Virus record (IMG/VR): IMGVR_UViG_2579778634_000010
Coordinates: 1 to 17,162 of that record
Direction: 5' to 3' (one strand)
Length of the DNA stretch: 17,162 nt
From: a virus
Lineage: Duplodnaviria; Heunggongvirae; Uroviricota; Caudoviricetes
The position numbers were made by a program, and so were the translations under genes. Below the pieces are notes generated by a model. The model did no database searches, was not told the origin of the DNA, and saw only the letters and a list, made by a program, of their open reading frames with translations. Numbering within the stretch: the stretch's first letter is position 1; each line of letters begins with the position of its first letter. Positions 1,248-16,791 of this stretch are shown here, piece by piece.

Positions 1248-1301
1248 CTCTCCACTACCGCGCCGTCATTCTGGCGGCGCTTTACCCCAGAGAAATATCA
1301 A

Positions 1302-1547
1302 TCACCGGATTACCACATCCCACTCCGGCTCCTGCCATCTCAAATCCGGTGAATCATTTCTCTCAGGAATAACCATTACGTCCTTTTCCCTTCGCTCCCT
1401 TTCTATCGCCATCACAGCCAATGCTGTAACCATGATGTATTTTTGTTCGTCGGTTCCTGTTTCATAACGACGCATGAGGGTAAACTCGGGGCGATCAGTA
1501 ACCTCAATGATTTCGTTAATTTCTTTAATTTCGCGAGGAATATCCAT
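1302..1547 (-). CDS. Hypothetical small acidic protein (81 aa)
   Basis: ATG at 1547 with AGGAG 9 nt upstream on the - strand; its start overlaps the + strand start of the DUF4145 gene at an NcoI-like CCATGG; perfect 10-bp inverted repeat TCACCGGATT/AATCCGGTGA (1302..1311, 1343..1352) at its 3' end. Confidence 0.3.
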   Translation of the reverse strand: MDIPREIKEINEIIEVTDRPEFTLMRRYETGTDEQKYIMVTALAVMAIERERREKDVMVIPERNDSPDLRWQEPEWDVVIR

Positions 1548-2220
1548 GGGTTTAGTCTCCTTTGATATCACATGCCCGCACTGTTTAAAAGAGCGAGCTG
1601 TTATTGAGGCATTTGCCGAAAAACAAATTGAAAAAACACCTTTTTTTAACGTCGCTTTTGTATGCAGAAGTTGTCATCGAGGAGGTGTTGCTATTGTTGA
1701 AATCCCATCAGACCACTATCACGGTCCCATGGCGGAAAGCCAGAAAAAAGACCTCGATATTCTGATTTCAGGAAATAGCCAGTACCGTTTCCGCAAGATC
1801 TATCCTGTGGTCAAAAAAATTACCGCACCAGAATATACGCCCCCGGTTGCAGACCGTACTTTTGTTGAGGCAAAAGAGGATTTACAGAGGAGGCGGTACG
1901 ACACAGTGGTTATTCTTTGTCGCAGAGTCCTCGATATCTCCACGAAAAAACTGCTCGGCGATGAAGCAGGAAAAGAATCGCTGTCGCAACGTATTCAGAT
2001 GATTTACAAAAAAGGCCTGATCACTGAACAGATGAAGGAATGGGCTCATATTGTACGAATTGATGCCAATAAAGCAGTTCATACAGATGAAGTTTTCACA
2101 CCAATTGAGGCAAGCCAGATCCTGAGTTTTACCGAAATGTTTTTAGTCTACGCCTTCACTCTGCCTGCAATGGTGGAAGCCAGACGTGAACAAAAAAGAT
2201 CAGATTCAGCCTCTATATGA
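1546..2220 (+). CDS. Zinc-ribbon plus DUF4145-like domain protein; candidate anti-phage / exclusion gene
   Basis: 224 aa from ATG 1546 (GAGGA 6 nt upstream); N-terminal CPHC...CRSCH; C-terminal HIVRIDANKAVHTDEVFTPIEASQILSFTEMFLVYAF matches the DUF4145 signature as I remember it; opposite strand to the surrounding operon. Confidence 0.65.
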   Translation: MGLVSFDITCPHCLKERAVIEAFAEKQIEKTPFFNVAFVCRSCHRGGVAIVEIPSDHYHGPMAESQKKDLDILISGNSQYRFRKIYPVVKKITAPEYTPPVADRTFVEAKEDLQRRRYDTVVILCRRVLDISTKKLLGDEAGKESLSQRIQMIYKKGLITEQMKEWAHIVRIDANKAVHTDEVFTPIEASQILSFTEMFLVYAFTLPAMVEARREQKRSDSASI

Positions 2221-2252
2221 ATCACTTTTCTGAACACGTAAGCCCCCGTCAT

Positions 2253-2684
2253 TCACGACGGGGAGAACATCAATCCCTCTGCACTCCCTCGCCAGAATGC
2301 CAGCACACGCTGCATCGTTTCGCTGTTACGGCACTCGCGACAAATTGTGTTGTAGCGTCTGTCGTAGCGCCGTATTTCCCCATCTGGTAATGCCCGGATA
2401 AGGTCTGGATCAACGACAACCGGTTTCTTCGACTTTGCCCTTGAGAGTTTTTTGCGGGCATTTTGCCAGTCCTTACGAGCCTGTTCAGACGGGAATACTC
2501 CGTAACCGGAATTGTAAACATCACCACTGGCGGCCAGCTCCATGCATAAACGACCGACAGACGCATGACTGACACCAATTTCATCCGATAACTGCCGAAT
2601 CGTGCCTCGTCCGTTAAGGCGTACGAATTCCACGATCAGCCCCTTAATTTTTTCCCGCTCTTCTGGTGTAAATGCTCTTGTCAT
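2253..2684 (-). CDS. Hypothetical HTH-containing protein (143 aa)
   Basis: ATG 2684 with GGAGGT upstream; HTH-like segment TIRQLSDEIGVSHASVGRL; last gene of the leftward early operon in this window. Confidence 0.6.
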   Translation of the reverse strand: MTRAFTPEEREKIKGLIVEFVRLNGRGTIRQLSDEIGVSHASVGRLCMELAASGDVYNSGYGVFPSEQARKDWQNARKKLSRAKSKKPVVVDPDLIRALPDGEIRRYDRRYNTICRECRNSETMQRVLAFWRGSAEGLMFSPS

Positions 2685-2699
2685 AAGCACCTCCGGAGA

Positions 2700-3470
2700 T
2701 CACTTTGTTGTCGGTGAATGAACCGGAATATCAGCAATCGAACTGAAAATATCCCGGTGTTTATTCAGCTCCCGCAGCGCGGCGCAGACTCGCTCCCACT
2801 TCTGAACATCACTTTTCGCCCTGCGCAGCGCCAGGTTTGCCCTGCGCAGGGACGGAAAAATCAGCTCATCTGCTTGCGTTTCGGTAAACGATGGCAACGA
2901 CTGCACAATGTCCGCCACAGTTTCTGTTTTAATTTCTTCCTGTGTTGCGGCTTCCCGGACTGGTAACGCAGCACCTGCTGGCTGAGGAAAGGCCTTACCA
3001 TCATTTTCCGTTACCGGCGCGGTTTTCGGATCTGCTGGTAAATTACCCCCCGGCATGCAGTAACGAAATTTACCGTTCTGATTAACGCGTGCCAGCCGCC
3101 CCGTTGCGGTTACCACCGCCAGCGTGGAAGCAACCTTGCGAGTGGTAACTCCGAACTTACCCGCTATTTCTTCACAGGTTTTAGCCCCCTCCTGAGAGAT
3201 AAACTCAATCATCATGTCAGCGCTAACTTTTGGAGCGACCTCTTCGGTCAGCATATCCTGTGTTTCAGATTTTACTGGCCGCTCTTCGGTTACCCGGGAT
3301 TCACCTTCGACAGCCAGAAACCAGGTGTGACCCGTTTTATCAACAACGCCATTTTTTTTGAGTTCCCACAGTTCGTTGAGAACTTCTTCACGGCTGATAT
3401 CAAGCCGCGCCGCCAGTTCAACAGAATTGGCTTTTCCCATCGCTTTCAGTGCATGCAATACGGTTTCCAT
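2700..3470 (-). CDS. Hypothetical winged-helix-like prophage protein (256 aa); possibly DUF1627-type
   Basis: ATG 3470 with GAGGT 9 nt upstream; directly downstream of the DnaC-like gene; family name is from memory only. Confidence 0.65.
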   Translation of the reverse strand: METVLHALKAMGKANSVELAARLDISREEVLNELWELKKNGVVDKTGHTWFLAVEGESRVTEERPVKSETQDMLTEEVAPKVSADMMIEFISQEGAKTCEEIAGKFGVTTRKVASTLAVVTATGRLARVNQNGKFRYCMPGGNLPADPKTAPVTENDGKAFPQPAGAALPVREAATQEEIKTETVADIVQSLPSFTETQADELIFPSLRRANLALRRAKSDVQKWERVCAALRELNKHRDIFSSIADIPVHSPTTK

Positions 3471-3495
3471 CGAAAATTTACCTCGTCAAAAATTC

Positions 3496-4236
3496 TCACA
3501 TACCCTGACGTCCAACGTTTGACCGCCAGCTCTCCCAGTTAAAATTCACCCAACGACCACCATTCATGGTCATACGGTCCATCACTCGCTCCCCCAGAAG
3601 CCTGCTCATCGCACCGTGATTCAGGTTAGTCAGCATCCCGACACTGCGCAGTGATGCCGTTCTGCGGTCGACGATCTGGTTCAGTATGACCTGCTCGTTG
3701 CGCGTATCCCGCTGCATGCCAATTTCATCAAGGACCAGAAGGTCAACTCCACAAAGCTCCTGTAAAAATTTTTCCCCGGACTTGCCGTTGTCGTAGCCGT
3801 CATGCAACACACTCATGACATCGGACACGGTGACGATAATCACGCTTCTCCCCTTCGCCATTAGCCAGTTGCCAATCGCTGCTGCAAGGTGATTTTTCCC
3901 GGTGCCAGGTTTACCGCTGAACACGAAATTCGTGCAGCCGGTATGCAGCTCTGCCGCGATGGATTTTGCCTGACTCAGAGCATGGCGCTGACCGTCGTTC
4001 TGCACCCGGTAGTTCCCGAATGAGCACTTCCTGTGAAGCGGCTGGATGCCCGAACGGTTCAGGATTTTTTCAACCCGCGCCTGATGATTCAGGCGGTTAA
4101 TTTCCTCGCTGCGCTTACGGCCCTCAGCCAGTTGCCATTCCCGCCATTCGTCGGTCGTCCGGAACGGTGCTGCCACGTGCGGTGGTGCCAGACGGCGCAC
4201 CCGTTCAAGAATCCCTCCTGTCGAAATGTTTTTCAT
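3496..4236 (-). CDS. DnaC-like helicase loader (IstB-type AAA+ ATPase)
   Basis: 246 aa; Walker A GKPGTGKNHLA, Walker B LLVLDEIG; start 6 nt after the stop of the O-like gene. Confidence 0.85.
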   Translation of the reverse strand: MKNISTGGILERVRRLAPPHVAAPFRTTDEWREWQLAEGRKRSEEINRLNHQARVEKILNRSGIQPLHRKCSFGNYRVQNDGQRHALSQAKSIAAELHTGCTNFVFSGKPGTGKNHLAAAIGNWLMAKGRSVIIVTVSDVMSVLHDGYDNGKSGEKFLQELCGVDLLVLDEIGMQRDTRNEQVILNQIVDRRTASLRSVGMLTNLNHGAMSRLLGERVMDRMTMNGGRWVNFNWESWRSNVGRQGM

Positions 4237-4242
4237 GGCTGA

Positions 4243-5343
4243 TTACCCCCTGAAACCCGGCGGAATTTCGGTGTCCGGTTCAGAAATGTGATTCACGCAA
4301 CGCAGGCTGACTGCGCCAGCCTTCGGCAGCGACCACGGATTTTCGAAATTCCTGTTCGGGCCAAAAAACGTCGATGCCTGCTGAACAAATTCAGTTCCCG
4401 CTTTCCCGGTAGCCTCCAGGTATCTTGCGTAACGCCTCACGCCATCCAGCACGACATCCGGTGACACCCCTTCGCGTAATCTGGCCCTCCAGGCATTGAA
4501 CGCGGATTTCTTCGGGTTTGACCCTGCCCGATGCGGATATTCACGCCAGACCCGTTCGAACACGTCAGGATAATCAACTCGTCCCGCAGACGGTCCCGGC
4601 ATCGCCCGGGTTAACCCAATCGGCTTCCCGCTCATCGCGGAATCGGCTTCAGGCTGCTGCGGTTGGCGTTGTTGCTCCGGTTCGACGATCAGCACCTGCT
4701 GCACACAACGCCCGGAATCTGCTTCCGGTGTCGTGCCAGCTGGTCCTGGACGTTCAGTCAGAACAGGACAAAAATCCCCCTGCGGGTCCGTGGCGATTTT
4801 TTCGCCATGGACCAGAAGGGTTTTATCCCTTTCCTGTTCTTGTTCTTGTTCCTGTTCCTGTTCCTGTTCCTGTTCTTGGCTTGAAAGGGGCTCTGAAGGG
4901 GCTTCAATTTTCCGACATGATTCACGTCTGACATCCAGGTGGAAATCATCCTTATATCTATCATAAAAGGATGATAAAAAAGGATTTTCCAGCAACGCGG
5001 AATATTCATTTCTTACCCCAGCACAACGGTTATCGCCAGGTTTCAGCGATTCACCAACCTGCCATGCTGCCATTTCATGCACCCATACAACCTCAGAATC
5101 ATGGTCATAGCTGCAAAAACCAGCCTCGCAAGCCATTTGAAGCCCCTTAGAAGCCCCTTCAGGATCAAGTCCGGTTTCGTGAGCAATGTACAAAACAGGC
5201 AGGTAATAAAGGCCCAGCATATTGGAATGAGGCGAGGTCATCATATACAACGCCACTACCATACATTCCGGACCAGACTTCCTTAGTTTTCTCCCTGTTT
5301 CGCCTAACCAGAACTGAGGTGAAATTGTTGCGTAATTACGCAT
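4243..5343 (-). CDS. Replication initiation protein, O-like (YdaU/DUF1376-type) with internal (EQ)n tract
   Basis: 366 aa; position between the cII-like and DnaC-like genes; N-terminus MRNYATISPQFWLGETGRKL; acidic EQEQEQ tract; family assignment from memory. Confidence 0.7.
   Translation of the reverse strand: MRNYATISPQFWLGETGRKLRKSGPECMVVALYMMTSPHSNMLGLYYLPVLYIAHETGLDPEGASKGLQMACEAGFCSYDHDSEVVWVHEMAAWQVGESLKPGDNRCAGVRNEYSALLENPFLSSFYDRYKDDFHLDVRRESCRKIEAPSEPLSSQEQEQEQEQEQEQEQERDKTLLVHGEKIATDPQGDFCPVLTERPGPAGTTPEADSGRCVQQVLIVEPEQQRQPQQPEADSAMSGKPIGLTRAMPGPSAGRVDYPDVFERVWREYPHRAGSNPKKSAFNAWRARLREGVSPDVVLDGVRRYARYLEATGKAGTEFVQQASTFFGPNRNFENPWSLPKAGAVSLRCVNHISEPDTEIPPGFRG
4834..4875. repeat. 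Hexanucleotide tandem repeat (CTGTTC/TTGTTC) x7 encoding (EQ)n on the - strand
   Basis: Seven consecutive 6-bp units read directly; in frame within the O-like CDS. Confidence 0.9.
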
Positions 5344-5483
5344 AGTCCCCTCGCATACAAGATTTACTCCATACCGCAGACGGTCCCGGTATCTCCCGGG
5401 TTAACCCAATCGGCTTCAGGCTGCTGCGGTTGGTGTTGTTGCTGGCGAAATTCTTCCAGATGTGGCAGAATTATTCCCGTGTA

Positions 5484-5560
5484 TTGCTCCATGCCCTGCC
5501 TGAATATCAGATATTCATCAGGATTTGCTCAGAACGTCCGGCCCCAACCGGACGTTTTTT
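5484..5560 (+). ncRNA. oop: OOP-like antisense RNA overlapping the 3' end of the cII-like gene
   Basis: 3' portion CAUCAGGAUUUGCUCAGAACGUCCGGCCCCAACCGGACGUUUUUUAUU closely resembles the lambda oop 3' end as I remember it; terminator stem 5534..5541/5548..5555 plus U-run 5555..5560; antisense to the last ~18 codons of cII. The 5' end is placed by analogy to the 77-nt lambda RNA. Confidence 0.6.
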
Positions 5561-5803
5561 ATTTGCATGAACGTTAATGGCATGCTGGAAAGCCCGGCTG
5601 ATCGGACTGATATCAGATGCCATCTGAAACGCGCATAAAATCGCCGCGATGTATCGCCAGTCGGTACGACTGACCTTCGATTCATGGCAGCCAATCATCT
5701 TCGCCAGTCCCCTTTGCGTCAGAGCTGACAGGTTGATAAGTAAATCCGTTTCAGCGCGATCGATATCGCGCTGTGACAGTTTGCTGTAACTTGTTTGTGA
5801 CAT
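5507..5803 (-). CDS. cII: CII-like transcriptional activator
   Basis: 98 aa; C-terminus HANKKRPVGAGRSEQILMNI resembles lambda CII (TNKKRPAATERSEQIQMEF); AGGAAA 8 nt upstream; position after cro and nutR. Confidence 0.8.
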   Translation of the reverse strand: MSQTSYSKLSQRDIDRAETDLLINLSALTQRGLAKMIGCHESKVSRTDWRYIAAILCAFQMASDISPISRAFQHAINVHANKKRPVGAGRSEQILMNI

Positions 5804-5871
5804 TTGTTAATTTTCCTATATTGATATGGGGTTAAGCGGCAATCCCCAATGGGTTTGCCACTGATGTTTGC

Positions 5872-5912
5872 TCACCCTGTTAGAGGTGAACGACCAGCAA
5901 TGTTAAAGAGCG
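5872..5912 (-). promoter_or_regulatory. nutR candidate: boxA CGCTCTTTAA (5912..5903) plus boxB hairpin (5889..5872)
   Basis: On the - strand GCTCTTTAACATTG is shared with the nutL candidate; it is followed by a 5-bp stem with an 8-nt loop containing CUAA; lies just after the cro stop, as nutR does in lambda. Confidence 0.55.
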
Positions 5913-5919
5913 GTGTTAC

Positions 5920-6144
5920 TTATTCAGCCTGGTTCGGATGAGGAAACAGGTGCGGTAAGTCCGGGCGAATTTCGTAAGCCTTAACCTGACCATTGGTGGC
6001 ATTAACGATAGCGAAAACTTTTTCAGGAGAAACTTTTCCGCCTCGCAACCATTTATGAACAGCGGGCTGTGATACGCCGCAATCAGCTGCAAGTCGTTTT
6101 TGACTGCCAACAATATTCAAGGCTCGCTGAATCACTAAATTCAT
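5920..6144 (-). CDS. cro: Cro-like HTH repressor
   Basis: About 75 aa from ATG 6144 (AGAGGT upstream); HTH QKRLAADCGVSQPAVHKWLRG; divergent from the cI-like gene across the operator region. Confidence 0.75.
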   Translation of the reverse strand: MNLVIQRALNIVGSQKRLAADCGVSQPAVHKWLRGGKVSPEKVFAIVNATNGQVKAYEIRPDLPHLFPHPNQAE

Positions 6145-6170
6145 GAGCATACCTCTACAGCAAATAAAGC

Positions 6171-6254
6171 ATAACCAAAAATAACATGAGTTATACACCA
6201 GGGCAATAACAATTGTTGTTTTACTTTTGATAACCGTGGTTATAGATTACAGGT
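6171..6254. promoter_or_regulatory. OR-like region: three operators (6181..6194, 6206..6219, 6230..6243) with divergent PR/PRM
   Basis: Sites ATAACATGAGTTAT, ATAACAATTGTTGT, ATAACCGTGGTTAT spaced 24-25 bp; extra half-site ATAACC at 6171; TAGATT at 6243..6248 ends 7 nt before the cI ATG (lambda PRM -10 is TAGATT); TATAAC on the - strand overlaps the cro-proximal site. Confidence 0.7.
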
Positions 6255-6962
6255 ATGAAAACATTCGCAGAAAGACTAAATGCCGCCATGAGTTCAGCCG
6301 GGTTGTCACAAGCACAACTTGCAGACATGGTGGGGGTATCACAACCAGCCATACAAAAGATGTCATCTGGTAAAACAACCGGATCACGTAAAATGGTCGA
6401 ATTAGCCAACGCGTTAAGAGTTCGCCCTGAATGGCTAAGCTCTGGTATAGGGTCAATGAGACCACAGAGCGCAGAAGAGCCATCTAATGCTCGGGAATCA
6501 TCTTTAAAAGCTATCGCCTGGGATGATCATCAAAATGATAATGACGAATTTGTTGCGCTCCCCCTTCTAAATATTTCACTTTCAGCTGGCGGAGGAAGTT
6601 GTGCATTGGAGGAGTCCGCAGAATTCTCTCTAGTTTTTAGGCGCTATTACCTGAAAAAAATGGGAGTTCCAGAAAAAGCGGCAAAGTTGGTCAGGGTTGT
6701 TGGGCAAAGCATGGAGCCAACACTCCATGATGGTGATGTGGTGGGGGTAAACACGCAAGATACGAGCATCAGGGATGGTAAAACATATGCAATTTGCCAA
6801 GCTGATTTGTTAAGGGTAAAAACGCTCATAGCCACGCCAACATCGGTAATTATCAGATCGATAAACCGCGAAGAGTATCCTGATGAAGTAATGAACAGAG
6901 AAGAATTCTACAAAAACGTAAGAATCATAGGGCGAGTGTTCTGGTCATCACATAGCTGGTAA
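6255..6962 (+). CDS. cI: CI-like repressor (N-terminal HTH, C-terminal S24/LexA-type autoprotease domain)
   Basis: 235 aa; HTH LSQAQLADMVGVSQPAIQKM; catalytic Ser in GQSMEP and Lys in LLRVKTL; no SD, so probably leaderless as in lambda. Confidence 0.85.
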   Translation: MKTFAERLNAAMSSAGLSQAQLADMVGVSQPAIQKMSSGKTTGSRKMVELANALRVRPEWLSSGIGSMRPQSAEEPSNARESSLKAIAWDDHQNDNDEFVALPLLNISLSAGGGSCALEESAEFSLVFRRYYLKKMGVPEKAAKLVRVVGQSMEPTLHDGDVVGVNTQDTSIRDGKTYAICQADLLRVKTLIATPTSVIIRSINREEYPDEVMNREEFYKNVRIIGRVFWSSHSW

Positions 6963-7086
6963 TCAGACTCCAACTGAACTTTTGCTATAAGAACACTCAC
7001 GAAGAACGGCCTTTTATTGTGCTCAATACCACCGATGGTAAACCATTCGCCAAGTAGCCAATTCATAAAATGCCATTTCTAAATCC

Positions 7087-7112
7087 CCCGGCTCCAGTGC
7101 CGGGTTTTATTT
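7087..7112. terminator. Intrinsic terminator between convergent cI-like gene and the 7115..7336 gene
   Basis: Stem CCCGGC/GCCGGG with 6-nt loop followed by TTTTATTT on the + strand; U-rich on the - strand as well. Confidence 0.6.
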
Positions 7113-7114
7113 AC

Positions 7115-7336
7115 TTAATTACACAGTCGCATATCCTGAAGTAACACATCTATAGCTAACTTCACAGCGAGATCATCCAATTCATCATGGTGAAGCACTC
7201 GGATCATTCCCGCAATAGCATCTGCTGAAATAGCTTCCCCAGTAGCAATAACCTCAAGCAACGACACCCCTAGAATTTCGACTACCCGCTGGTGCAACAC
7301 ACCAAATTCCCCTTCGATTAACATGCAATCACCCAT
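7115..7336 (-). CDS. Hypothetical small protein in the rex-equivalent slot, antisense to cI
   Basis: About 73 aa from ATG 7336 (alternative ATG 7324; the track ORF starts at a TTG at 7381); terminator directly after its stop; no family recognised. Confidence 0.45.
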   Translation of the reverse strand: MGDCMLIEGEFGVLHQRVVEILGVSLLEVIATGEAISADAIAGMIRVLHHDELDDLAVKLAIDVLLQDMRLCN

Positions 7337-7410
7337 AACAATCAGCCTTTCCCCCTTGAAAATATCACGCGGATACCACAAAAAATAAAATATTTTTGTT
7401 ATCAGTCATT

Positions 7411-7472
7411 TATAACGTTTTTCATAAAATGATAAATATAGTTATTGCACAACCAGATAACTTAGGTTATCT
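7411..7472 (+). promoter_or_regulatory. OL-like operators (7431..7444, 7456..7469; weaker 7411..7424) and pL candidate
   Basis: ATAAATATAGTTAT and ATAACTTAGGTTAT share the OR consensus and 25-bp spacing; candidate -35 TTGCAC 7444..7449 and -10 TATCTT 7467..7472. Confidence 0.55.
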
Positions 7473-7518
7473 TCAATTCAACAGCAGGACGCTGGAAGCC
7501 AAACGGAACAGATTGGCC

Positions 7519-7559
7519 GGCTCTTTAACATTGATGGACTCTCAACCTAATCGTTGAGA
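7519..7559 (+). promoter_or_regulatory. nutL candidate: boxA GCTCTTTAA (7520..7528) plus boxB hairpin (7540..7559)
   Basis: GCTCTTTAACATTG shared with nutR; stem TCTCAAC/GTTGAGA with loop CUAAUC; between pL and the N-like gene. Confidence 0.55.
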
Positions 7560-7669
7560 CCAAAATCTAAGTGATTTTGGGGATGACGCGAATTTCAGTT
7601 GCAAGGCCGCGATCGAGAAGAAAAACACCTCGACGCGTCATACACCAAAGCCACTTAAAGGAGACCATC

Positions 7670-7975
7670 ATGGTAACCATAATCTGGAAAGAATCCAAAG
7701 GTACGGCAAAAAGCCGCTATAAAGCTCGCAGGGAAGAACTTATTGCAGAGCGACGCAGTAGTGAAAGACTGACACGGAAGATTGCGCTAAAGATCTCTGG
7801 TTGCGTCGGAGCAGACAAAGCAGTATCACTCGGAAGCCTTCGCTGCAAGAAGGCAGAAGAAGTCGAGAGTAAACAGAACCGTATTTACTACCGCAAACCA
7901 CGCAGTGAAATGGGTGTGACTTGCTCAGGCCGCCAGAAACAACGCGGAAAATCAATTCCGGCTTATTACGATTGA
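7670..7975 (+). CDS. N: N-like transcription antiterminator
   Basis: 102 aa from ATG 7670 (AAGGAG 6 nt upstream); arginine-rich N-terminus KSRYKARREELIAERRSSERLTRK; C-terminus YYRKPRSEMGVTCSGRQKQRGKSIP resembles lambda N (WYSKPGERGITCSGRQKIKGKSIP). Confidence 0.8.
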   Translation: MVTIIWKESKGTAKSRYKARREELIAERRSSERLTRKIALKISGCVGADKAVSLGSLRCKKAEEVESKQNRIYYRKPRSEMGVTCSGRQKQRGKSIPAYYD

Positions 7976-7980
7976 GGTTA

Positions 7981-8265
7981 ATGATGAAGTTCAAATTGAA
8001 CGATGAAGTTAAATGGTCAAGCTCATCAAACGGTGTAACGAAGGTAAAAATCGGGTTTATCGTCGAGGTGATTCCTCCTGGTGTCAACGTAAAAAAATTC
8101 GAACTAGGCCGTCTGCTAGATGCACCTGGCCTTCCGAGGAAAGAAGAGAGCTATATAGTTTGTGTAGGTTCAAGACCCGGATCTCGTGCCAAGCCAAAAT
8201 ATTACTGGCCGCGAGTTAATAACCTGCGTCGATTACAACAAAAAACTTGCGCCCTTAAAACTTGA
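7981..8265 (+). CDS. Hypothetical protein (94 aa)
   Basis: ATG 7981 with GAGG just upstream, 5 nt after the N stop; no family recognised. Confidence 0.55.
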   Translation: MMKFKLNDEVKWSSSSNGVTKVKIGFIVEVIPPGVNVKKFELGRLLDAPGLPRKEESYIVCVGSRPGSRAKPKYYWPRVNNLRRLQQKTCALKT

Positions 8266-8371
8266 AATTCTTCAGGCCGCCGGAAAAATGCAGCTTAAAC
8301 TGGACGAATTCATCGACTGTATGGATGAAATGAATAAAGCAGTTCAGAAGCTTAAAGAGCTGACCGCCTGA
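8186..8371 (+). CDS. Small ORF of uncertain start (61 aa from GTG 8186, or 27 aa from ATG 8288)
   Basis: Overlaps the 3' end of the previous gene in another frame; no convincing SD; helical KAVQKLKEL C-terminus. Confidence 0.25.
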   Translation: MPSQNITGRELITCVDYNKKLAPLKLEILQAAGKMQLKLDEFIDCMDEMNKAVQKLKELTA

Positions 8372-8402
8372 TATTAATAAATTGCAACTACCGGAGTTAA
8401 CT

Positions 8403-8762
8403 ATGAATGAAACAGAACTGAAGCACATTATCGCCCTGCTTCTGGAAGATGCCAGACAGGTTTATCGACTTAGCCCAAATTCCGCAACGCAGGAACGCAT
8501 CCGGATAGCGGAAACAGCACTGAAACAGGACAATGGAAACGGCATATCCAAATTTAGCGCCGCCAGTGAAAATGAAGTAATAGAAATAAACAGCAATATC
8601 AGCGACAGTTGCGTCGCTTACAGCCACCAAATAATTCGTGTAAGTGCAAGAATAATGGAAGTGATGGCAAGTGAGCTTGAAAAGAACAACATCAAGCCCA
8701 CTGATTGTTGTTTAAGAACCGTAATGAACGTTATTTATTACTCGATGTTCCGAAGTCGCTAA
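8403..8762 (+). CDS. Hypothetical protein (119 aa)
   Basis: ATG 8403 with GGAG 6 nt upstream; no family recognised. Confidence 0.6.
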   Translation: MNETELKHIIALLLEDARQVYRLSPNSATQERIRIAETALKQDNGNGISKFSAASENEVIEINSNISDSCVAYSHQIIRVSARIMEVMASELEKNNIKPTDCCLRTVMNVIYYSMFRSR

Positions 8763-8940
8763 CAGCGTCGAGTTTTTCATTAAAAAATGATTCAAATGCA
8801 TCGTAAAATACGGCAATAGCACCGCCCTTATCTACCGCGGCAGGAACTGCCTTTTGAGGTATATCTTTCTCCGTAAATTGTGTGTTGTAAGTATCGACAG
8901 CCAGCCGCATCAGAAACATCACTTTTTCTTCTTGTGTCAT
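8731..8940 (-). CDS. Hypothetical 69-aa protein on the opposite strand inside the pL operon (sieB-equivalent slot)
   Basis: ATG 8940 preceded by AAGGAGAG; 3' end overlaps the 8403..8762 gene by 32 bp; a ~440-bp noncoding region lies upstream. Confidence 0.55.
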   Translation of the reverse strand: MTQEEKVMFLMRLAVDTYNTQFTEKDIPQKAVPAAVDKGGAIAVFYDAFESFFNEKLDAVSDFGTSSNK

Positions 8941-9164
8941 AAATTCACTCTCCTTACGGGGTTTGTAGTTGAGGAGTTCTCCACGGGTGAGGTGGAGATC
9001 GTGCGCCGGACACGGGTGAGTTCCTGCACTCTCAGTTTACTGAACAGACATTACCCTGAAAGCCAGGGTACTACACGAAAGCGCGAGGCGAAGACTCTTT
9101 CCCATAGAAGGATTGTCGTTAGATTTCTTCGACCGTGCGCTTCCGGTTGTGAATAACAACATTG

Positions 9165-9220
9165 CTGTGTGTAACCCTTGGCGGATATCGGTTTGCCGAT
9201 TGCTGATGTCCGCCCTTTTT
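9165..9220 (+). ncRNA. DicF-like small RNA candidate
   Basis: UUGGCGGAUAUCGGUUUGCCGAUUGCUGAUGUCCGCCC followed by UUUUU (stem 9180..9185/9209..9214); resembles the DicF body and terminator as I remember them; sits just upstream of a cell-division-inhibitor-like gene. The 5' end is not defined. Confidence 0.4.
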
Positions 9221-9396
9221 AAAGTGAATTTTGTGATGCGGTGAATGCGGCTATGCGCACGCGGAACAGTTAAACCGACAGGATGTCACGGAAAGTCATC
9301 GTCCCCTGACCCGGCGTTAGTTGTTAACTGGTTAACGTCACCTGGAGGCACCAGGCACCGCATCAACAAAGTTCATTTGTGAAAATGGAGATAATT

Positions 9397-9618
9397 ATGA
9401 TTGCTCATCACTTCGGAACTGATGAAATACCACGTCAGTGCGTGACGCCTGGCGATTATGTTCTTCATGAAGGTCGGACATATATCGCTTCAGCAAACAA
9501 TATTGAAAAGAGAAAACTCTATATTCGTAACTTCACAACAAAAACATGCATTACCGACTGCATGATTAAAGTTTTCATCGGGCGCGATGGCTTACCCGTA
9601 AAAGCAGCGTCGTTGTGA
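9397..9618 (+). CDS. KilR-like small protein (candidate cell-division inhibitor)
   Basis: 73 aa from ATG 9397 (GGAG 6 nt upstream), the length of Rac KilR; position between the accessory genes and the recombination genes; identity from memory, not searched. Confidence 0.5.
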
Positions 9619-9701
9619 CGAGTAATAAAATACACCTTCCATATCTGTAACAGACAAGCCGAAATAAAACCGCATTAATTATCAATCACGGAAAAATCAA
9701 A

Positions 9702-10088
9702 ATGAAAGAACTTGCGCAAAATGAAATATTTTCCGAAACCAGTCCTGATGCAATAAATGAACTCAAAGAAATTGCAGAACGCATCAGTAAAATATGCAAA
9801 GAATACAAAATCGACTTTGTATTTTCTTTTTCAGTGCTTACAGAAGTTGGAAATAACGAATATAAGGACAGTCGTTTTGTTTTATGTGGGTTAAATGGCA
9901 AAACACCAAGCCCATATATTCATGCTGCACGTGAAGTCGTCAGAAGCAACATTGGAGTACAACAAATCCATACACTGGCGCAGGCTCTTGAGTTTGCAAG
10001 AGAAAATTCCGAGTGCGACTGCCCTGAATGCCAGCACGAAAAGGGAAAAACAACTCACAAAACAGCAAACCAGGCAACCTTCCACTGA
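9702..10088 (+). CDS. Hypothetical protein with C-terminal CDCPECQ Cys cluster (128 aa)
   Basis: Complete ORF, weak SD; sits where racC/ydaE lie in Rac-type prophages. Confidence 0.55.
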   Translation: MKELAQNEIFSETSPDAINELKEIAERISKICKEYKIDFVFSFSVLTEVGNNEYKDSRFVLCGLNGKTPSPYIHAAREVVRSNIGVQQIHTLAQALEFARENSECDCPECQHEKGKTTHKTANQATFH

Positions 10089-10095
10089 AATAAAA

Positions 10096-10122
10096 ATCCG
10101 GCAGCGCAGGCTACCGGATTTC
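10096..10122 (+). terminator. Weak hairpin / possible antiterminated terminator between genes
   Basis: Stem ATCCGG/CCGGAT with 12-nt loop followed by TTT; U-tract is short. Confidence 0.25.
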
Positions 10123-10195
10123 TCCCTGCGTCACCGTATTCGGAGAAATCAGACAAAGGGCCGCTAATTCTAATCCAGCCAGAGGTTTAAATACA

Positions 10196-12268
10196 ATGAG
10201 CGCTGATAAACAGACTTTTGCACTACACTGCGAAGCAAAAAACGATAAAGTCAGAAAACGCCTTGGCATCAAAGGCGGTTTTTTCTGGACCGAGGCCAGA
10301 AAACTTTCTGTCGCAGTTTCCCGCTGCATTGCAGCCATGGACGATGCAGGCTACGACGAGGATGATTTCAAAAAACCCGTTCGCGTAAATTTCCCCGTCG
10401 TGAATGACCTTCCACCGGAAGGCGTGTTTGATACTGAATTCTGCAACCGCTATGAAAAAGGCGGTAACGATGGCATCACCATGATGGCTATCCCCTTCGA
10501 TGACAACATCAACGGTGAAGATGCCACAACTGCTGGCGATGACAACGATAACCTGGACGGAACTATTCCGGATGATGTGGAGAAAAGCGAATCCCCGGAC
10601 AGCGACGATGACTGTTCTGAGTGTGAAATTCCCGTCGCCACTCTGAGCCTTACTCATCGCTTCCTTCACCTCTTCTTATTCAGCAAAGATGAAGATGGAA
10701 AATACCGGCATCATGCCACACCAGAACAACGCAATAACGTGATCCGTATGGAGATGGACACAGAGGACAGTTACCTTCAGAGCCTGCTTACTGCTGTGCG
10801 CGCCGCGCATCATGAACTGGATAAACTGACGAACTATCACCTTAGTCGCCTGGCTGAATCTGTAGGGAAAGCATTCCCCCACTCTGCAAATCATCGCATC
10901 AGCCCGGCTGAATTCGACAAGTTCATTTCCACCTGGATGAAAACTGACTACCTTGATCAGGGCCTGCTGACAAAAGAATGGCAGAACGGAAATTATGTTT
11001 CAGGCATTACCCGTACGCCTTCCGGTGCTAACGCTGGCGGCGGAAATATTACCGATCGTGGTGAAGGATTCAAACATGATAAGACATCACTCGCACGAGA
11101 TGTAGCCACCGGCGTTCTGGCCCGTTCAATGGATGTGGATATTTATAACCTGCACCCAGCACACGCAAAACGCGTTGAAGAAATCGTGTCAGAGAATAAG
11201 CCGCCCTTTTCTGTTTTTCGCGACAAATTTATCGCCATGCCCGGTGGGCTGGATTATTCCCGCGCCATTGTGGTGGCTTCCGTGAAAGAAGCACCAATCG
11301 GCATTGAGGCCATCCCGGCACGCGTGACTGAATATCTCAACAAAGTGTTGACCGAAACCGATCACGCTAACCCGGATCCGGAAATCGTGGAAATTGCCTG
11401 CGGTCGCTCATCAGCACCGATGCCGCAGCGCGGAACAGCAGAAGGAAAACATGGCGATGAAGAAAAGCAACAAGCATCGGACACAATGGCTAATGAACAG
11501 GCAGCGCCTGAATCAGTGGAAGAAATTCCAGTTAAACATAATGAGGACACGCAATCACTGGAAAATGTCTCATCTGTAGAAACGAAATACCAGGAACTGA
11601 GGGAGGAACTCAATAAAGCCAGGGAAAACATCCCCCCAAAAAATCCAGTCGATGCCGACAAATTACTGGCTGCCTCGCGTGGAGAATTCGTTGAAGGCAT
11701 CAGTAACCCTGCTGATCCGAAGTGGGTTAAGGGGATCCAGACTCGCGACACTGAGGACCAGAATCAGTCCAAAGTGGAACAAATTGCCCCAGAAGCGGGA
11801 CAAAACAGCCCGGATACGCAACAAAACGGGCCAGAAGAGCAACAGCCAGGGCCAGTAATGCAACAGGAAGTGGAAAAGGTTTGCACCACATGCAGTCAGA
11901 ACGGTGGCGGCCATTGCCCTGACTGTGGTCCAGTAATGGGAGATGAAACTTACGCTGAAACTTTTGGAGAAAATGACGCCGCTGATGGAGAAGACTCAGC
12001 ACAAACTGAGGAGAAGATCATTCAGGAAAACTCTGTTGATGCCGCTCAGGAGGGCGAAACCGTTGTTCAGAACGAGCCAGGCAGTGATACGTCCGGCGAT
12101 GACGCCAATTCTGAGCCAGTAACTCTCGACTGGAAAAGACAGCTCGTGATTGCCGCCGTCTATGGTTTGTGCGCCAACCCCGCATGTATAGCCACAGCGC
12201 CAGCAATCCCTGATATCGCCATCATGATTGCCAACAGGCTTGAAAATTTCGGAGGTGATAAATCATGA
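10196..12268 (+). CDS. Large acidic low-complexity protein (690 aa), possibly related to the RecE N-terminal region, without a nuclease domain
   Basis: Uninterrupted 2073-nt ORF; D/E-rich tracts; CxxC...CxDC near the C-terminus; stop overlaps the gam start (ATGA); the RecE resemblance is from memory. Confidence 0.8.
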
Positions 12269-12561
12269 ATGCCTGGCTTATCCCCGATCGCATTGAAGAG
12301 CAGTCATGGGCACGACACTACCAGCAAATTGCCCGTGAAGAAACTGAAGCTGAGCTGGCAGACGACCTGGAAAAAGGTCTGCCCCAACACCTGTTTGAAT
12401 CGCTATGCATCGATAATCTGCAACGTCACGGGGCCAGCAAAAAAGCTATTTCCCGTGCATTTGATGACGATGTCGATTTTCAGGAACGCATGGCAGAACA
12501 CATCCGCTACATGGCTGAAACCATCGCCCGTCACCAAATTAATATTGATTCAGAGGTATAA
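12265..12561 (+). CDS. gam: Gam, host RecBCD inhibitor (short GamS-length form)
   Basis: 98 aa; [50 protein letters not shown] close to lambda Gam; GGAGGT 8 nt upstream. Confidence 0.9.
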
Positions 12562-12566
12562 AACGG

Positions 12567-13352
12567 ATGAGTACAGCACTCGCAACGCTGGCAGGGAAGC
12601 TGGCTGAACGTGTCGGCATGGATTCTGTCGACCCACAGGAACTAATCACCACTCTTCGCCAGACGGCATTTAAAGGTGATGCCAGCGATGCGCAATTTAT
12701 CGCATTGTTGATCGTCGCCAACCAGTACGGCCTTAATCCCTGGACGAAAGAAATTTACGCCTTCCCTGACAAGCAAAACGGCATCGTTCCGGTGGTTGGC
12801 GTTGATGGCTGGTCCCGCATTATCAATGAAAACCAGCAGTTTGATGGCATGGACTTTGAGCAGGACAATGAGTCCTGTACATGCCGGATTTACCGCAAAG
12901 ATCGCAATCACCCGATCTGCGTTACCGAGTGGATGGATGAATGTCGCCGCGCACCATTCAAAACCCGCGAAGGCAGAGAAATCACCGGACCGTGGCAGTC
13001 GCATCCCAAACGGATGTTACGGCACAAAGCCATGATTCAGTGTGCTCGCCTGGCCTTCGGATTTGCTGGCATCTATGACAAGGATGAAGCCGAGCGTATT
13101 GTCGAAAATACTGCATATACTACAGAACGTCAGCCGGAACGCGACATCACCCCGGTTAACGAAGAAACCATGTCGGAAATTAACGCCCTTCTTACTTCCA
13201 TGGAAAAAACGTGGGATGACGACCTGTTGCCGCTCTGTTCCCAGATTTTTCGCCGCAACATTTACACATCTTCAGAACTAACACAGGCTGAAGCTGTGAA
13301 GGTTCTTGGATTCCTGAAACAGAAAGTCACAGAGCAGAAGGTAGCAGCATGA
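12567..13352 (+). CDS. bet: Bet (Red-beta) single-strand annealing protein
   Basis: 261 aa, near-identical to lambda Bet as remembered ([50 protein letters not shown]...). Confidence 0.95.
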
Positions 13353-14026
13353 CACCGGACATTATCCTGCAACGTACAGGGATCGACGTGAGAGCTGTCG
13401 AACAGGGGGATGATGCGTGGCACAAATTACGGCTCGGCGTCATCACCGCTTCAGAAGTTCACAACGTGATAGCAAAACCCCGCTCAGGAAAGAAATGGCC
13501 TGACATGAAAATGTCCTACTTCCACACCCTGCTGGCTGAGGTTTGCACCGGTGTGGCTCCGGAAGTTAACGCTAAAGCGCTGGCCTGGGGAAAACAGTAC
13601 GAGAACGACGCCAGAGCCCTCTTTGAGTTCACTTCCGGCGTGAATGTTACTGAATCCCCGATCATCTATCGCGACGAAAGTATGCGCACCGCTTGCTCTC
13701 CCGATGGTTTATGCAGTGACGGCAACGGCCTTGAACTGAAATGCCCGTTTACCTCCCGGAATTTCATGAAATTCCGGCTCGGTGGTTTCGAGGCCATAAA
13801 GTCGGCTTACATGGCCCAGGTGCAGTACAGCATGTGGGTGACACGAAAAGATGCCTGGTACTTTGCCAACTATGACCCGCGTATGAAGCGTGAAGGACTG
13901 CATTATGTCGTGGTCGAACGGGATGAAAAATACATGGCTGGTTTTGACGAAATGGTGCCAGAGTTCATCGAAAAAATGGACGAGGCACTGGCTGAAATTG
14001 GTTTTGTATTTGGGGAGCAATGGTGA
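13349..14026 (+). CDS. exo: Exo (Red-alpha) 5'-3' exonuclease
   Basis: 225 aa, near-identical to lambda Exo as remembered ([54 protein letters not shown]...); ATGA overlap with bet. Confidence 0.95.
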
Positions 14027-14077
14027 TAGCCAGTAGCAACGAGGTGCAAATGATATGACAATTAAGGAATACTACCG

Positions 14078-14329
14078 GTGTTCGTTCTAATCCAGCGCGG
14101 GCAGTCTTTCGTCGATGCCAACAACTATCCGGTTGAAGTCTGCAAAATCACTCTGACGCAGGTAATCTTCCGCAGGCTGGATGGGAGAACCAGAGCCGCT
14201 TCAATTAGCGCATTTAATGCAGAATTTGAGCGAATCGATCACAACGAACTACACATGATTAAAGCAGAAATTGAGAAGGAAAAGCATATTGCCAGCCTTC
14301 GAAAAATGCGCCGCATATCAATCAACTGA
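14078..14329 (+). CDS. Hypothetical small ORF (83 aa, GTG start)
   Basis: No SD; only support is the strong intrinsic terminator 2 nt after its stop. Confidence 0.3.
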   Translation: MFVLIQRGQSFVDANNYPVEVCKITLTQVIFRRLDGRTRAASISAFNAEFERIDHNELHMIKAEIEKEKHIASLRKMRRISIN

Positions 14330-14330
14330 C

Positions 14331-14351
14331 AACCGCCTTCGGGCGGTTTTT
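14331..14351 (+). terminator. Intrinsic terminator with UUCG tetraloop upstream of xis
   Basis: AACCGCC-TTCG-GGCGGTT followed by a T-run to 14351. Confidence 0.7.
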
Positions 14352-14363
14352 AATGGCGAAAAT

Positions 14364-14735
14364 ATGGATTCACACAGTATCACCCTCAAAGAGGCCTGTA
14401 AGTTTCTCAAGATATCAAGGCCAACAGCTGTTAACTGGATACGAACGGGCCGACTACAGGCAACCCGAAAAAATTCTTCCGGTAAAAGATCACCTTATCT
14501 CACAACCCGGCAAGCCTGCATTGCAGCACTTCATTCACCGCTGCATACTGTCCAGGTGAGCGCGGGTGATGGCATAACAGAGGAAAGAAAATGTCACTCT
14601 TCCGCAGAGGTGAAATATGGTACGCCTCGTACTCGCTCCCGGGCGGGAAGCGAATTAAGGAGTCTCTTGGCACAAAGGACAAGCGGCAAGCTCAGGAGTT
14701 GCACGACAAGCGAAAAGCAGAACTCTGGCGAGTAG
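14364..14735 (+). CDS. xis: Excisionase (Xis/YdaQ-like)
   Basis: N-terminal [31 protein letters not shown] is a typical excisionase HTH; the ORF stays open 145 nt into int, so the C-terminal extent is uncertain. Confidence 0.6.
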
Positions 14736-15754
14736 ACAGACTGGGGGATATGCCAGATGTCACTTTCGAAGAAGCCTGCCTGAGATGGCTTGAGGAAAAA
14801 GCCGACAAGAAATCCATCGATTCCGATAAATCCAGAATCGCATTCTGGATTGAGCATTTCGAGGGAATAAGGATTAAGGATATATCGGAGGCAATGATCT
14901 ACTCAGTTATCAGCAAAGCGTATAACCGAAAAACAAAGGAGAGATGGAAGTTGCAGGTGGAGGCTGCATTAAGAAAAGGGAAAGAACCACCAGCCTATAT
15001 ACCTAAATCGGTGAGCACGCAAACAAAAGCAACACACCTGGCAATGATCAAGGCTATTCTGCGCGCCGCAGAGCGAGACTGGAAATGGCTTGAAAAAGCA
15101 CCTGTAATCAAAATACCTGCCGTAAAAAACAAACGCGTGAGATGGCTGGAAAAAGAAGAAGCCAGGAGACTCATTGATGCATGTTCTGATCCCCTGAAAT
15201 CTGTAGTTAAATTTGCACTGGCAACTGGCCTGAGGAGATCAAACATTATTAATCTGGAGTGGCAACAAATCGATATGCAGCGACGTGTTGCCTGGGTAAA
15301 CCCTGAAGACAGTAAGTCAAACCGCGCTATTGGGGTCGCACTGAATGACACTGCCTGCAAGGTGTTGCGTGATCAAATAGGCAAACATCACCGCTGGGTG
15401 TTTGTTTATACCACTGCTGCCAGAAGGCCTGACGGGACAATGACACCAAGCATCAGAAAGATGCGCCTGGACTATAACACATCGTGGTTAACAGCATGTC
15501 GTCGGGCAGGAATTGAAAATTTCCGTTTTCATGACCTCCGCCATACCTGGGCCAGTTGGTTAATTCAGTCAGGTGTACCACTGTCAGTACTTCAGGAAAT
15601 GGGCGGCTGGGAGTCTATCGAAATGGTGCGTAGGTACGCACACCTTGCACCTAATCATTTGACAGAGCACGCGAGGAAAATTGACGACATATTGGGTGAC
15701 GATGTCCCAAATTTGTCCCACCCTGAGGTTTTTGAGGATGCAAAGAAAGCATAA
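14591..15754 (+). CDS. int: Tyrosine recombinase / phage integrase (Rac IntR-like)
   Basis: 387 aa; GAGGAAAG upstream; catalytic motifs [25 protein letters not shown]; N-terminus resembles Rac IntR as remembered. Confidence 0.95.
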
Positions 15755-15886
15755 GTAATTGAATTAGAATGAGTTAAGCTCACGCTTTCAAGTGGTGAGC
15801 AACAACTTTAAAGTTGGTTACGTATCGTTTAAAATCAATTAGATAGCCCGTCATTTCTGCGCTCACACGTCCCAACATTGAAAAAC

Positions 15887-15920
15887 ATGCAAAGCTTTGT
15901 AAGCCGATGCAAAGCTTTGT
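15887..15920. repeat. Two 14-bp direct repeats ATGCAAAGCTTTGT (15887..15900, 15907..15920), each with palindrome CAAAGCTTTG
   Basis: Read directly; 20-bp periodicity, 130 bp downstream of int; candidate arm-type or regulator sites. Confidence 0.5.
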
Positions 15921-16009
15921 GTGTCTCACTTTTGTCCCAATACCAATCCGAATCCACCCTTTGTCATCATTGAGAAATGGCAAGGAAGAAAAGGATGTTA
16001 CTGCACGAT

Positions 16010-16039
16010 TTGACAAATCCGCCAGAGCTATCGCATACT
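16010..16039 (+). promoter_or_regulatory. Promoter candidate TTGACA-N18-CATACT upstream of ant cassette 1
   Basis: Consensus -35 TTGACA (16010..16015); matched by TTGACG-N18-TATACT (16520..16549) at the equivalent place in cassette 2. Confidence 0.4.
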
Positions 16040-16065
16040 GATCGCACTGAACAAATAAGCGGTCT

Positions 16066-16093
16066 CCGCACCCGATAGCTTTGCGGCTTTTTT
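16066..16093 (+). terminator. Intrinsic terminator in the leader of ant cassette 1
   Basis: Stem CCGCA/TGCGG followed by CTTTTTT; about 50 nt downstream of the promoter candidate. Confidence 0.6.
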
Positions 16094-16257
16094 ATGCCTG
16101 CAATTTGGCATAGTTACATCCGTACAAAGGTCGGGTGGAGAGGCGTAATACAACACCCGCAAGGGGAATATGCCCAGAGCTTCTTATTTGGCTCAGTTGA
16201 CACCCGACCGCCAGCTACTAACTGGCGGTTATAAACTAAACAAATAAGGAGGTCATC

Positions 16258-16542
16258 ATGACCAGTCAACTCATCCCCGTATTCAACGGTTCTATCTCAA
16301 ACCAAGCAGCCCTTCTATGCAATGCTCGCAATCTACACGCTTTCCTTGGGGTTGGTAAACGCTTTGCATCGTGGATAACAGAACGTATTGCTGAATATGG
16401 TTTCGTTGAAAATCAGGACTATATGATTGCTTCCCAAATTCGGGAAGCAAAAGGTAGAGGCGGTCACAACCGCAAGGAATACCACCTCACCCTCGACACA
16501 GCCAAAGAGCTTGCGATGGTTGACGACTGCGTCCAATACTGA
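16258..16542 (+). CDS. AntA-domain protein (94 aa), truncated paralog of the downstream antirepressor
   Basis: AAGGAGG 6 nt upstream; MTSQLIPVF...GFVENQDY...EYHLTLDTAKELAMV parallels copy 2, then ends after 7 unrelated residues. Confidence 0.7.
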   Translation: MTSQLIPVFNGSISNQAALLCNARNLHAFLGVGKRFASWITERIAEYGFVENQDYMIASQIREAKGRGGHNRKEYHLTLDTAKELAMVDDCVQY

Positions 16543-16549
16543 CTATACT
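16520..16549 (+). promoter_or_regulatory. Promoter candidate TTGACG-N18-TATACT upstream of ant cassette 2
   Basis: Same architecture as 16010..16039; overlaps the stop codon of copy 1. Confidence 0.4.
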
Positions 16550-16589
16550 CCGCGCCGAGGCCTCGAAAACCTCCCAAAAGCGGATTAAA

Positions 16590-16616
16590 CCAACCCCGTC
16601 AGTGTTGGATTTTTTA
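16590..16616 (+). terminator. Intrinsic terminator in the leader of ant cassette 2
   Basis: Stem CCAAC/GTTGG followed by ATTTTTT; followed by the same TTTTTATGCCTG as in cassette 1. Confidence 0.6.
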
Positions 16617-16791
16617 TGCCTGTTATTCAGTGATAGCACAGTGTGCGGTCACATCCCCGATCAATGTCGGGAGGGCGACGAATACAACACCCGCAAGGGG
16701 AATAAGTCCGCGGTATCTTTTGGGCCGTTTCGAGCCTCCCGGCACCACATCTTGTGGTGGCATTTCTCGAAAAAAGCCAAAGGAGGTCATC

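Follow-up and report, generated by a model that had tools for sequence, protein, structure and literature searches.

The stretch of DNA analysed here (the window) is the 17,162 nucleotides (nt) at positions 1 to 17,162 of IMG/VR virus record IMGVR_UViG_2579778634_000010, an Escherichia coli lambdoid prophage, and the element in question is a small RNA (sRNA) gene on its plus strand, upstream of the cell division inhibitor gene kil. By sequence and by position, this element is a member of the KilS family and represents the kilS allele of this prophage; its family membership and the strong intrinsic terminator structure at its 3' end are both direct observations. We consider it probable that the interval from about 9129 to 9220 (+) is a kilS allele giving an sRNA of about 90 nt from the kil leader, and that this RNA is kin to DicF by mosaic descent. 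An earlier note on this DNA had proposed the element as a DicF-like sRNA candidate, perhaps a DicF paralog; it is in fact the counterpart of KilS, which is annotated in K-12 and was published in 2021. As first stated, the observation is the rediscovery of a known sRNA and ordinary by itself; the present analysis adds the mosaic relationship between DicF and KilS and a match to the seed of the sRNA RprA, both of which are directly testable.

Identity, structure and ends of the element

In E. coli K-12, the RefSeq annotation includes the noncoding RNA kilS (b4833) of the Rac prophage, 98 nt long (1418405-1418502) and situated about 175 nt upstream of kilR. KilS was predicted from RNA interaction by ligation and sequencing (RIL-seq) on Hfq and verified by Northern blot, where it forms a discrete band; its transcription starts at 1418502, RNase E cleaves it at 1418471, and yncL is a reproducible partner (Bar et al. 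2021, PMC8175672). In the window 176 nt separate the end of the terminator (9220) from the kil ATG (9397), the equivalent K-12 positions being 1418405 and 1418229, and the element aligns with K-12 KilS along its whole length, with 76% identity in a global alignment. Since Rfam has no KilS model, a covariance model (R1) was built from 18 distinct KilS-type sequences from viral contigs, with the window and its upstream-flank type excluded. Model R1 matches 9127-9220 (+) in full length (model positions 1-100) with 58.9 bits and E = 1.4e-12; it gives 12.4 bits on Qin DicF (E = 0.28) and 18 bits on the rprA locus (E = 0.012). The earlier note's proposal of an sRNA gene ending at an intrinsic terminator is upheld.

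The K-12 and window alleles have in common the position in the kil 5' untranslated region, the hairpin base, the U5 tract and the downstream leader, and also a 5' part that reads GUGCGC.UCCGGUUGU.AAUAAC.ACAUUGCUGUGUGUA. They differ in the top of the hairpin, which is shorter and of another sequence in the window, with a 9-nt loop where the Rac loop is about 10 nt longer in the alignment; in the bases that follow the pairing block listed in Table 1 (GUAACCC in the window, GUAGUCC in Rac); and in the upstream flank, which in the window is of the Qin type, unlike that of Rac KilS.

The 86 nt from 9140 to 9225 fold with -27.5 kcal/mol (z = -3.5), a stability that no dinucleotide shuffle out of 200 attains. 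The fold consists, in order, of a small 5' hairpin, a mostly unpaired stretch, the 13-bp hairpin formed by the G+C-rich arms GGCGGAUAUCGGU (9180-9192) and GCUGAUGUCCGCC (9202-9214), a C and UUUUU, which bears out the terminator-like stem with five U that had been read from the letters. In two relatives (L194 and L226; L numbers denote loci of our sample) two G-U wobble pairs of the terminator hairpin become A-U. Compensatory covariation in the hairpin is sparse and limited to these wobble-to-Watson-Crick changes, with no formal pair count made, because hairpin versions are swapped whole by recombination. In K-12 the 3' arm of the small 5' hairpin is ACGAC, a change from a U-A to a U-G pair that retains the pairing, and the AAU-AAC-AAC run that overlaps this hairpin (9152-9160) may serve as an Hfq distal-face motif. 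A simple terminator and promoter scan reported nothing at the element, and it is uninformative here, since it likewise missed the promoter and terminator of K-12 KilS; the terminator scan passed over the window hairpin because its loop limit is 8 nt, and the promoter scan has no extended -10 rule.

As to the extent of the RNA, which had been placed at 9160-9222, the 3' terminator stands but the start at 9160 does not: homology puts the 5' end about 30 nt further upstream, and by analogy with K-12 KilS the primary 5' end would lie near 9129-9132. Position 9160 is equivalent to the RNase E cut mapped in K-12 KilS (1418471). RNase E reportedly prefers RN/WUU, a preference that the local AAC/AUUG near 9160 fits. 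The putative -10 hexamer of the window aligns with TAAATT of K-12 Rac, 7 nt upstream of the mapped KilS start at 1418502.

Table 1. Coordinates of the kilS allele, its parts and the neighbouring genes in the window
Feature	Position	Strand	Remarks
Full-length KilS-type sRNA	9129-9220	+	about 90 nt; 5' end approximate
Possible -10 hexamer TAGATT of the sRNA's own putative promoter	9120-9125	+	read from the sequence
Small 5' hairpin GUUGU-GAAUA-ACAAC	9146-9160	+	predicted in the 9140-9225 fold
Exposed pairing block CAUUGCUGUGUGUA	9160-9173	+	RprA-seed-like
Terminator hairpin	9180-9214	+	13 bp, 9-nt loop; -22.0 kcal/mol alone
U5 tract, RNA 3' end	9216-9220	+	preceded by C; aligned to the annotated K-12 KilS 3' end, 1418405
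Structured kil leader	9227-9370	+	common to Rac and Qin (alignment A1)
kil, FtsZ/cell division inhibitor gene, 3' of the sRNA	9397-9618	+	73 aa; annotated kil in RefSeq
Open reading frame bounding the gene-free gap upstream	8731-8940	-	69 aa; phrog_2605, function unknown; good Shine-Dalgarno
N-like antiterminator gene, upstream in the same operon	7670-7975	+	phrog_271, 7.6e-35
cI-type repressor gene	6255-6962	+	

The mosaic locus of DicF and KilS

The Rfam DicF model (RF00039), against which the earlier note had suggested checking its candidate, finds no match in the window at its gathering score of 48 bits. When 8940-9400 (461 nt) is searched locally with permissive settings, it gives a full-length match at 9166-9215, with 29.2 bits and E = 1.8e-4; the same model scores 76.7 bits on Qin dicF and 39.1 bits on K-12 KilS. 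Measured by the criterion of the family itself, the element falls outside DicF.

The element is nevertheless related to DicF. The DicF string given in the earlier note is correct: K-12 dicF has UUUGGCGGUAUCAGUUUU, which the window shares at 16 of 17 positions, plus one extra base. The 5' segment differs, as had been pointed out: UUUCUGGUGAC of DicF is replaced by UGUGUGUAACCCUU, with 9 of the 15 aligned columns identical. The hairpin base GGCGG/CCGCC is common to both RNAs, and so are the flanks, namely about 190 nt on the upstream side, ending GUGCGCUUCCGGUUGUG, and everything from the 3' arm of the hairpin on (CCGCCCUUUUUAAAGUGAAUUUUGUGAUG...), including the leader of about 170 nt of the downstream gene. 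Between these shared flanks Qin alone carries about 150 nt of unrelated sequence, within which lies the DicF 5' segment, and the two pairing regions of DicF (the 5' single-stranded segment, and the loop with the 3' arm) are other sequences in the window. The kinship that had been claimed holds for the hairpin base and the two flanks, but does not extend to DicF itself, and with flanks homologous on both sides the order of sRNA and division inhibitor gene does mirror that of dicF and dicB. Like DicF, the element belongs to an immunity-side operon of a prophage, precedes a division inhibitor gene and has its 3' end at an intrinsic terminator. Sequences hybridising to dicF are said to occur in other prophages.

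With the shared 3' arm and flank as anchor, 138 places were collected from species-representative genomes and IMG/VR. On the 5' side of the GGCGG stem these places carry discrete kinds of segment, namely the DicF type, the KilS type and at least two more, C and D. Type C (L065, L085, L101, L106, L128, L058) reads ..CAACAACCCAUGUUGAUUACCUUUUGGCGG and type D (L115) reads CCGGUUGUGUAGCCAGUGCAACCUCGUGGUGUACCCAUUGGCGG; the KilS model gives 22 and 39.7 bits on types C and D, respectively, and both may be additional sRNAs set on the same terminator and flanks. With the KilS block as anchor, 48 distinct KilS-type sequences were obtained, with at least six hairpin tops. Some KilS-type sequences carry a DicF-type hairpin (L186, L145, L148, L213), and the reverse mosaic, a DicF 5' segment on a KilS-type hairpin, is found in L011. 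The gene that follows is kil in 29 of 37 KilS-type copies and dicB in at least 62 of 78 DicF-type copies, with two DicF-kil crossovers. What varies least across all types is the hairpin's 3' arm together with the downstream flank.

Judged from these sequences, DicF and KilS are alternative, recombining fillings of one locus and not diverged copies of one RNA. Module swapping, rather than point mutation, would then be a way in which prophage sRNAs gain new target sets; with exchange of 5' segments, the sRNAs of closely related prophages would differ in their host targets. No paper that ties KilS to DicF or RprA was found in the searchable literature, and mention elsewhere is possible.

The sequence GUGCGC(U/C)UCCGGUUGU (9135-9151 in the window, about 2240-2257 in the Qin locus L003) is present in every type, and in Qin 150 nt of other sequence lie between it and DicF. 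In the fold of full-length K-12 KilS, the 5' GUGCGC pairs with GUGUGU of the block. GUGCGC might mask the seed block until the RNase E cut, a model that fails to explain its conservation in DicF-type loci.

The RprA-like block, its predicted targets and rival explanations

The likeness to RprA was noticed because a weak Rfam RprA alignment pointed to an exact match. The block of the window agrees with RprA nt 60-72 in all 13 nt (in the L129 variant 20 nt are kept), and of RprA nt 60-74 the window has 13 of 15 exactly and K-12 KilS all 15 (16 counting C75). K-12 KilS and RprA have AUUGCUGUGUGUAGUC in common (16 nt), and 24 of 26 positions when the comparison is extended through AAAYAACGA; the chance expectation of such 16-mers between these two RNAs is about 2e-6, which remains small even when about 100 candidate sRNAs are allowed for. 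The block is the most conserved stretch of the Rfam RprA consensus, and in RprA, in K-12 KilS and in the window alike AUUGCUGUGUGUA(GUC) stands directly 5' of the terminator hairpin, with an A-rich AAYAAC run before the block.

The likeness ends there. Outside the 26-nt block no similarity to RprA was found, and the RprA 5' hairpin and its nt 28-60 region, which pairs with rpoS, hdeD and csgD site II, are absent in the window. RprA is a core-genome sRNA induced by Rcs/Cpx, and its terminator and locus are unlike those of the window. The Rfam RprA model (RF00034, gathering score 70 bits) gives 22.4 bits on the window (E = 4) and 28.1 bits on K-12 KilS (E = 0.32), both below that score. The window RNA would work like one RprA module at most and is not a member of the RprA family. 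RprA itself reportedly uses two separate seed domains.

In RprA, nt 60-97 pair with site I of the csgD leader (-119..-84), and compensatory mutations in CAGC (-90..-87) of csgD and in RprA prove the pairing at site Ib, for which the block is the anti-site; the same RprA mutation affects pairing with ydaM, the block being part of the ydaM-pairing region (Mika et al. 2012). In our analysis, unconstrained RNAduplex runs on long targets gave giant-loop duplexes and were dropped for windowed scans and for counts of contiguous helices (G-U allowed) compared with shuffles. With the K-12 csgD leader, the contiguous helix has 15 bp for RprA and 16 bp for K-12 KilS; it has 16 bp, all Watson-Crick, for the L060-type KilS, and 14 bp for the window allele, of which 11 in a row are Watson-Crick (csgD -96..-83). 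Among 300 shuffled leaders, 0 to 2 reach the helix lengths found at -98/-96..-83, and 2 reach that of the window.

In yncL, the published partner of KilS, the two predicted sites both rely on this same block. The K-12 yncL gene corresponds to L139 17100-17195 (-), and RprA, having the block too, is predicted to pair at the same two sites, ACUAUACACA..GCAAUG in the 5' untranslated region and, immediately behind the stop codon, UUGCACGCAGCA. A possible overlap of targets between the core sRNA RprA and the prophage sRNA KilS is thereby suggested. Deletion of Rac leads to 7.9-fold more early biofilm in LB (Liu et al. 2015), an effect that fits the presence of a csgD repressor in Rac but is far from specific to it.

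The mechanism that we hold most likely is as follows. In the lysogen, the hairpin would act as an intrinsic terminator that halts transcripts not modified by N before they reach the toxic kil gene, and would thereby shield the lysogen; the same hairpin would form the sRNA's 3' end and its Hfq handle. The RNA could originate from a weak promoter of its own, from processing of the pL transcript at AAC/AUUG (about 9160), or from both. Trimming by RNase E near 9160 would put the block at the exposed 5' end, where it could pair with host mRNAs, the best-supported predicted target being the csgD leader, at the site used by RprA. Synthesis of the RNA, Hfq association, a start of its own and an RNase E cut immediately before the block are features of K-12 KilS that would carry over. 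Further, we propose tentatively, as somewhat less likely than not, that the KilS family is a prophage copy of the RprA module (an A-rich Hfq site with an anti-csgD/ydaM seed) that represses csgD, curli and biofilm, and that the dicF/kilS site is a recombination cassette in which at least four unrelated 5' segments (DicF, KilS, C and D) are swapped on a shared terminator and shared flanks. The coincidence with the RprA seed supplies a functional hypothesis for KilS, namely that a prophage represses csgD and curli, which may bear on the increased early biofilm of Rac-deleted K-12.

Several observations weigh against this account. A discrete, Hfq-associated RNA is known only for K-12 KilS, and KilS there has only three partners and a few hundred chimeras, as a low-abundance RNA (Bar et al. 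2021, PMC8175672); none of the chimeras reported for KilS in that K-12 RIL-seq data is with csgD. The U tract of the element has only five U. The extended -10 of K-12, TGtTAAATT, is CGtTAGATT in the window, and with the TG lost the sRNA's own promoter would be weaker or absent, so that expression in the lysogen from this promoter is uncertain for the window allele as read from its sequence. The window allele may be poorly made in the lysogen, or made mainly by processing of pL transcripts after induction, which is how DicF is described to arise. On the target side, the window allele would form two csgD pairs fewer than K-12 KilS (GUAACC as against GUAGUC). Only weak pairing is predicted for it with dgcM/ydaM, 29 of 200 shuffles doing equally well, so that no claim is made for this target. 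With RprA, deletion of csgD site Ib alone gave no derepression, sites Ia and II being redundant (Mika et al. 2012); since KilS lacks the sequences for sites Ia and II, site Ib alone is perhaps insufficient. Finally, the constancy of the block in our sample is partly by construction, as the block was the search anchor.

Three other explanations have to be weighed. A functional DicF paralog, antisense to ftsZ (perhaps also to pykA and xylR) and acting with Kil against division, would account for the full-length match to the Rfam DicF model, for the homology of hairpin base, U tract and both flanks to the dicF locus, and for a place before a division inhibitor gene like that of dicF before dicB. 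That match, however, is below the gathering score, far from the score of genuine DicF and absent from a standard scan. DicF uses its 3' region for pairing with ftsZ and pykA and its 5' end for xylR (Balasubramanian et al. 2016), the reverse of the earlier note, which had put the ftsZ seed in the 5' segment; in the window the loop and 3' arm that pair with ftsZ and pykA, and the 5' end that pairs with xylR, are both replaced. Scanned in windows for duplexes with ftsZ -70..+30, the DicF 3' region reaches -27.9 kcal/mol at the ribosome-binding site, with 3 of 60 shuffles as good, whereas the window hairpin reaches -21.9 kcal/mol in the ribosome-binding region with 47 of 60 as good, that is, no complementarity above chance. 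Since both pairing segments of DicF are swapped in the window, no action on ftsZ is expected, and we regard such a paralog as very improbable.

A more serious, if still unlikely, explanation is that the element is only a terminator or attenuator of the tL type, which keeps kil silent in the lysogen and whose short RNA is a by-product with no role in trans. It is favoured by a strong hairpin and U tract immediately ahead of a toxic gene whose operon is N-antiterminated, by the constancy of the 3' arm and downstream flank across types, and by the literature on Rho, NusG and OxyS, in which silencing of kilR by termination is established for Rac. Nonetheless, K-12 KilS is found on Hfq in chimeras whose partners are specific, and on Northern blots it appears as a discrete band; the 5' block stays constant while the hairpins around it are swapped; and an identity of 13-16 nt to a proven RprA seed is hard to explain in this way. 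The two roles, terminator and sRNA, are in any case compatible and not exclusive. Less credible again, and in our judgement improbable, is a longer cis-acting kil leader, in which translation of kil, or the loading of Rho, is controlled by the hairpin and an STnc100-like domain (9227-9370), the partner of the block lying inside the leader and not in other mRNAs. The 176-nt leader is indeed conserved in the window, Rac and Qin, its fold (9220-9420) has z = -2.8 against shuffles, it bears a sub-threshold likeness to an Rfam family, and the pairing of GUGCGC with the block in the K-12 fold would be of this kind. Yet the terminator parts the block from the leader in most transcripts, and the same leader follows DicF-, KilS- and C-type segments, so that it does not co-vary with the block. 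A kilS allele that is both terminator and sRNA remains the reading we prefer.

Prevalence, operon context and other RNA elements

At 95% identity or more over 101 nt, the window allele occurs in 64 of 5,426 complete E. coli genomes and is annotated in none of them; FORC_069, NCCP15648 and NCTC9112 have exactly this allele, and O104:H4 C227-11 has a copy with 98% identity. The Rac-type allele occurs in 1,680 of the same genomes and is unannotated outside K-12. KilS-type genes in about one third of complete E. coli genomes are an annotation gap, as Rfam has no model for them and the DicF model misses KilS.

The gene-free stretch noticed earlier before the Kil open reading frame (ORF) is real, although it measures 456 nt (8941-9396) and not 440 bp, and no gene is annotated in it in identical RefSeq genomes. 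The KilR-like ORF of 73 aa is confirmed as well, its product having 90% identity to K-12 KilR and matching phrog_294, "Kil protein for bacterial septation inhibition" (PHROG, 8e-36). On the plus strand the order is the cI-type repressor gene, the N-like gene, several small ORFs, the element, kil, recE, gam, bet, exo and int; the host phage is a lambdoid resembling Stx phages, with N, recE, gam, bet and exo. This order places the element inside an N-antiterminated early-left (pL-type) operon, directly before a toxic division inhibitor gene.

The minus-strand ORF that bounds the gap upstream runs against the pL-type operon and overlaps by about 30 nt the 3' end of a plus-strand ORF (8403-8762); its promoter would need to be in the same gap as the sRNA. 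Two small ORFs, 9113-9244 and 9245-9382, were considered as genes and rejected, gaps of unequal length relative to Rac and Qin being taken to break their frames; these gaps fall in the divergent part of alignment A1 (window versus Rac and Qin). No counterpart ORF downstream of the terminator recurs in the related loci examined. A hairpin, ACCCUG-AAAGC-CAGGGU, at 9053-9069 (+), about 60 nt upstream of the putative -10, is partly kept upstream of Qin dicF; it has a superficial likeness to a boxB stem-loop, yet it lies 1 kb downstream of the N gene.

The kil leader scores 30.6 bits with the Rfam STnc100 model (RF02076), below its cut-off of 47, over model positions 22-154 of 206, and the Rac leader scores 27.8 bits. 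It could be distantly related to the STnc100/PasD group, or else act in cis as a leader. A 2026 preprint on Pas sRNAs has no treatment of DicF, kil, RprA or Rac.

Other RNA elements are found at both ends of the window. At 354-541 (-), isrK (75.4 bits) is adjacent to C4 antisense RNA (74.4 bits), both above their Rfam gathering scores; the pair is a C4/antirepressor immunity module of the P1/P7 type. In L007 and L058 an isrK/C4 pair occurs about 220 nt downstream of a KilS-type or C-type terminator, in the place of kil. Beyond the integrase gene, sRNA-Xcc1 (RF02221) is found twice, at 16129-16217 and 16666-16751 (+), with 69 and 73 bits and about 540 nt apart. In this region the window loses its colinearity with the prophage of NZ_CP009050, to which it is otherwise near-identical. 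Elsewhere in E. coli the region is annotated as two antA/antB antirepressor genes beside a truncated 4Fe-4S (ynfG-like) gene, which suggests that it belongs to a second phage-derived element in tandem.

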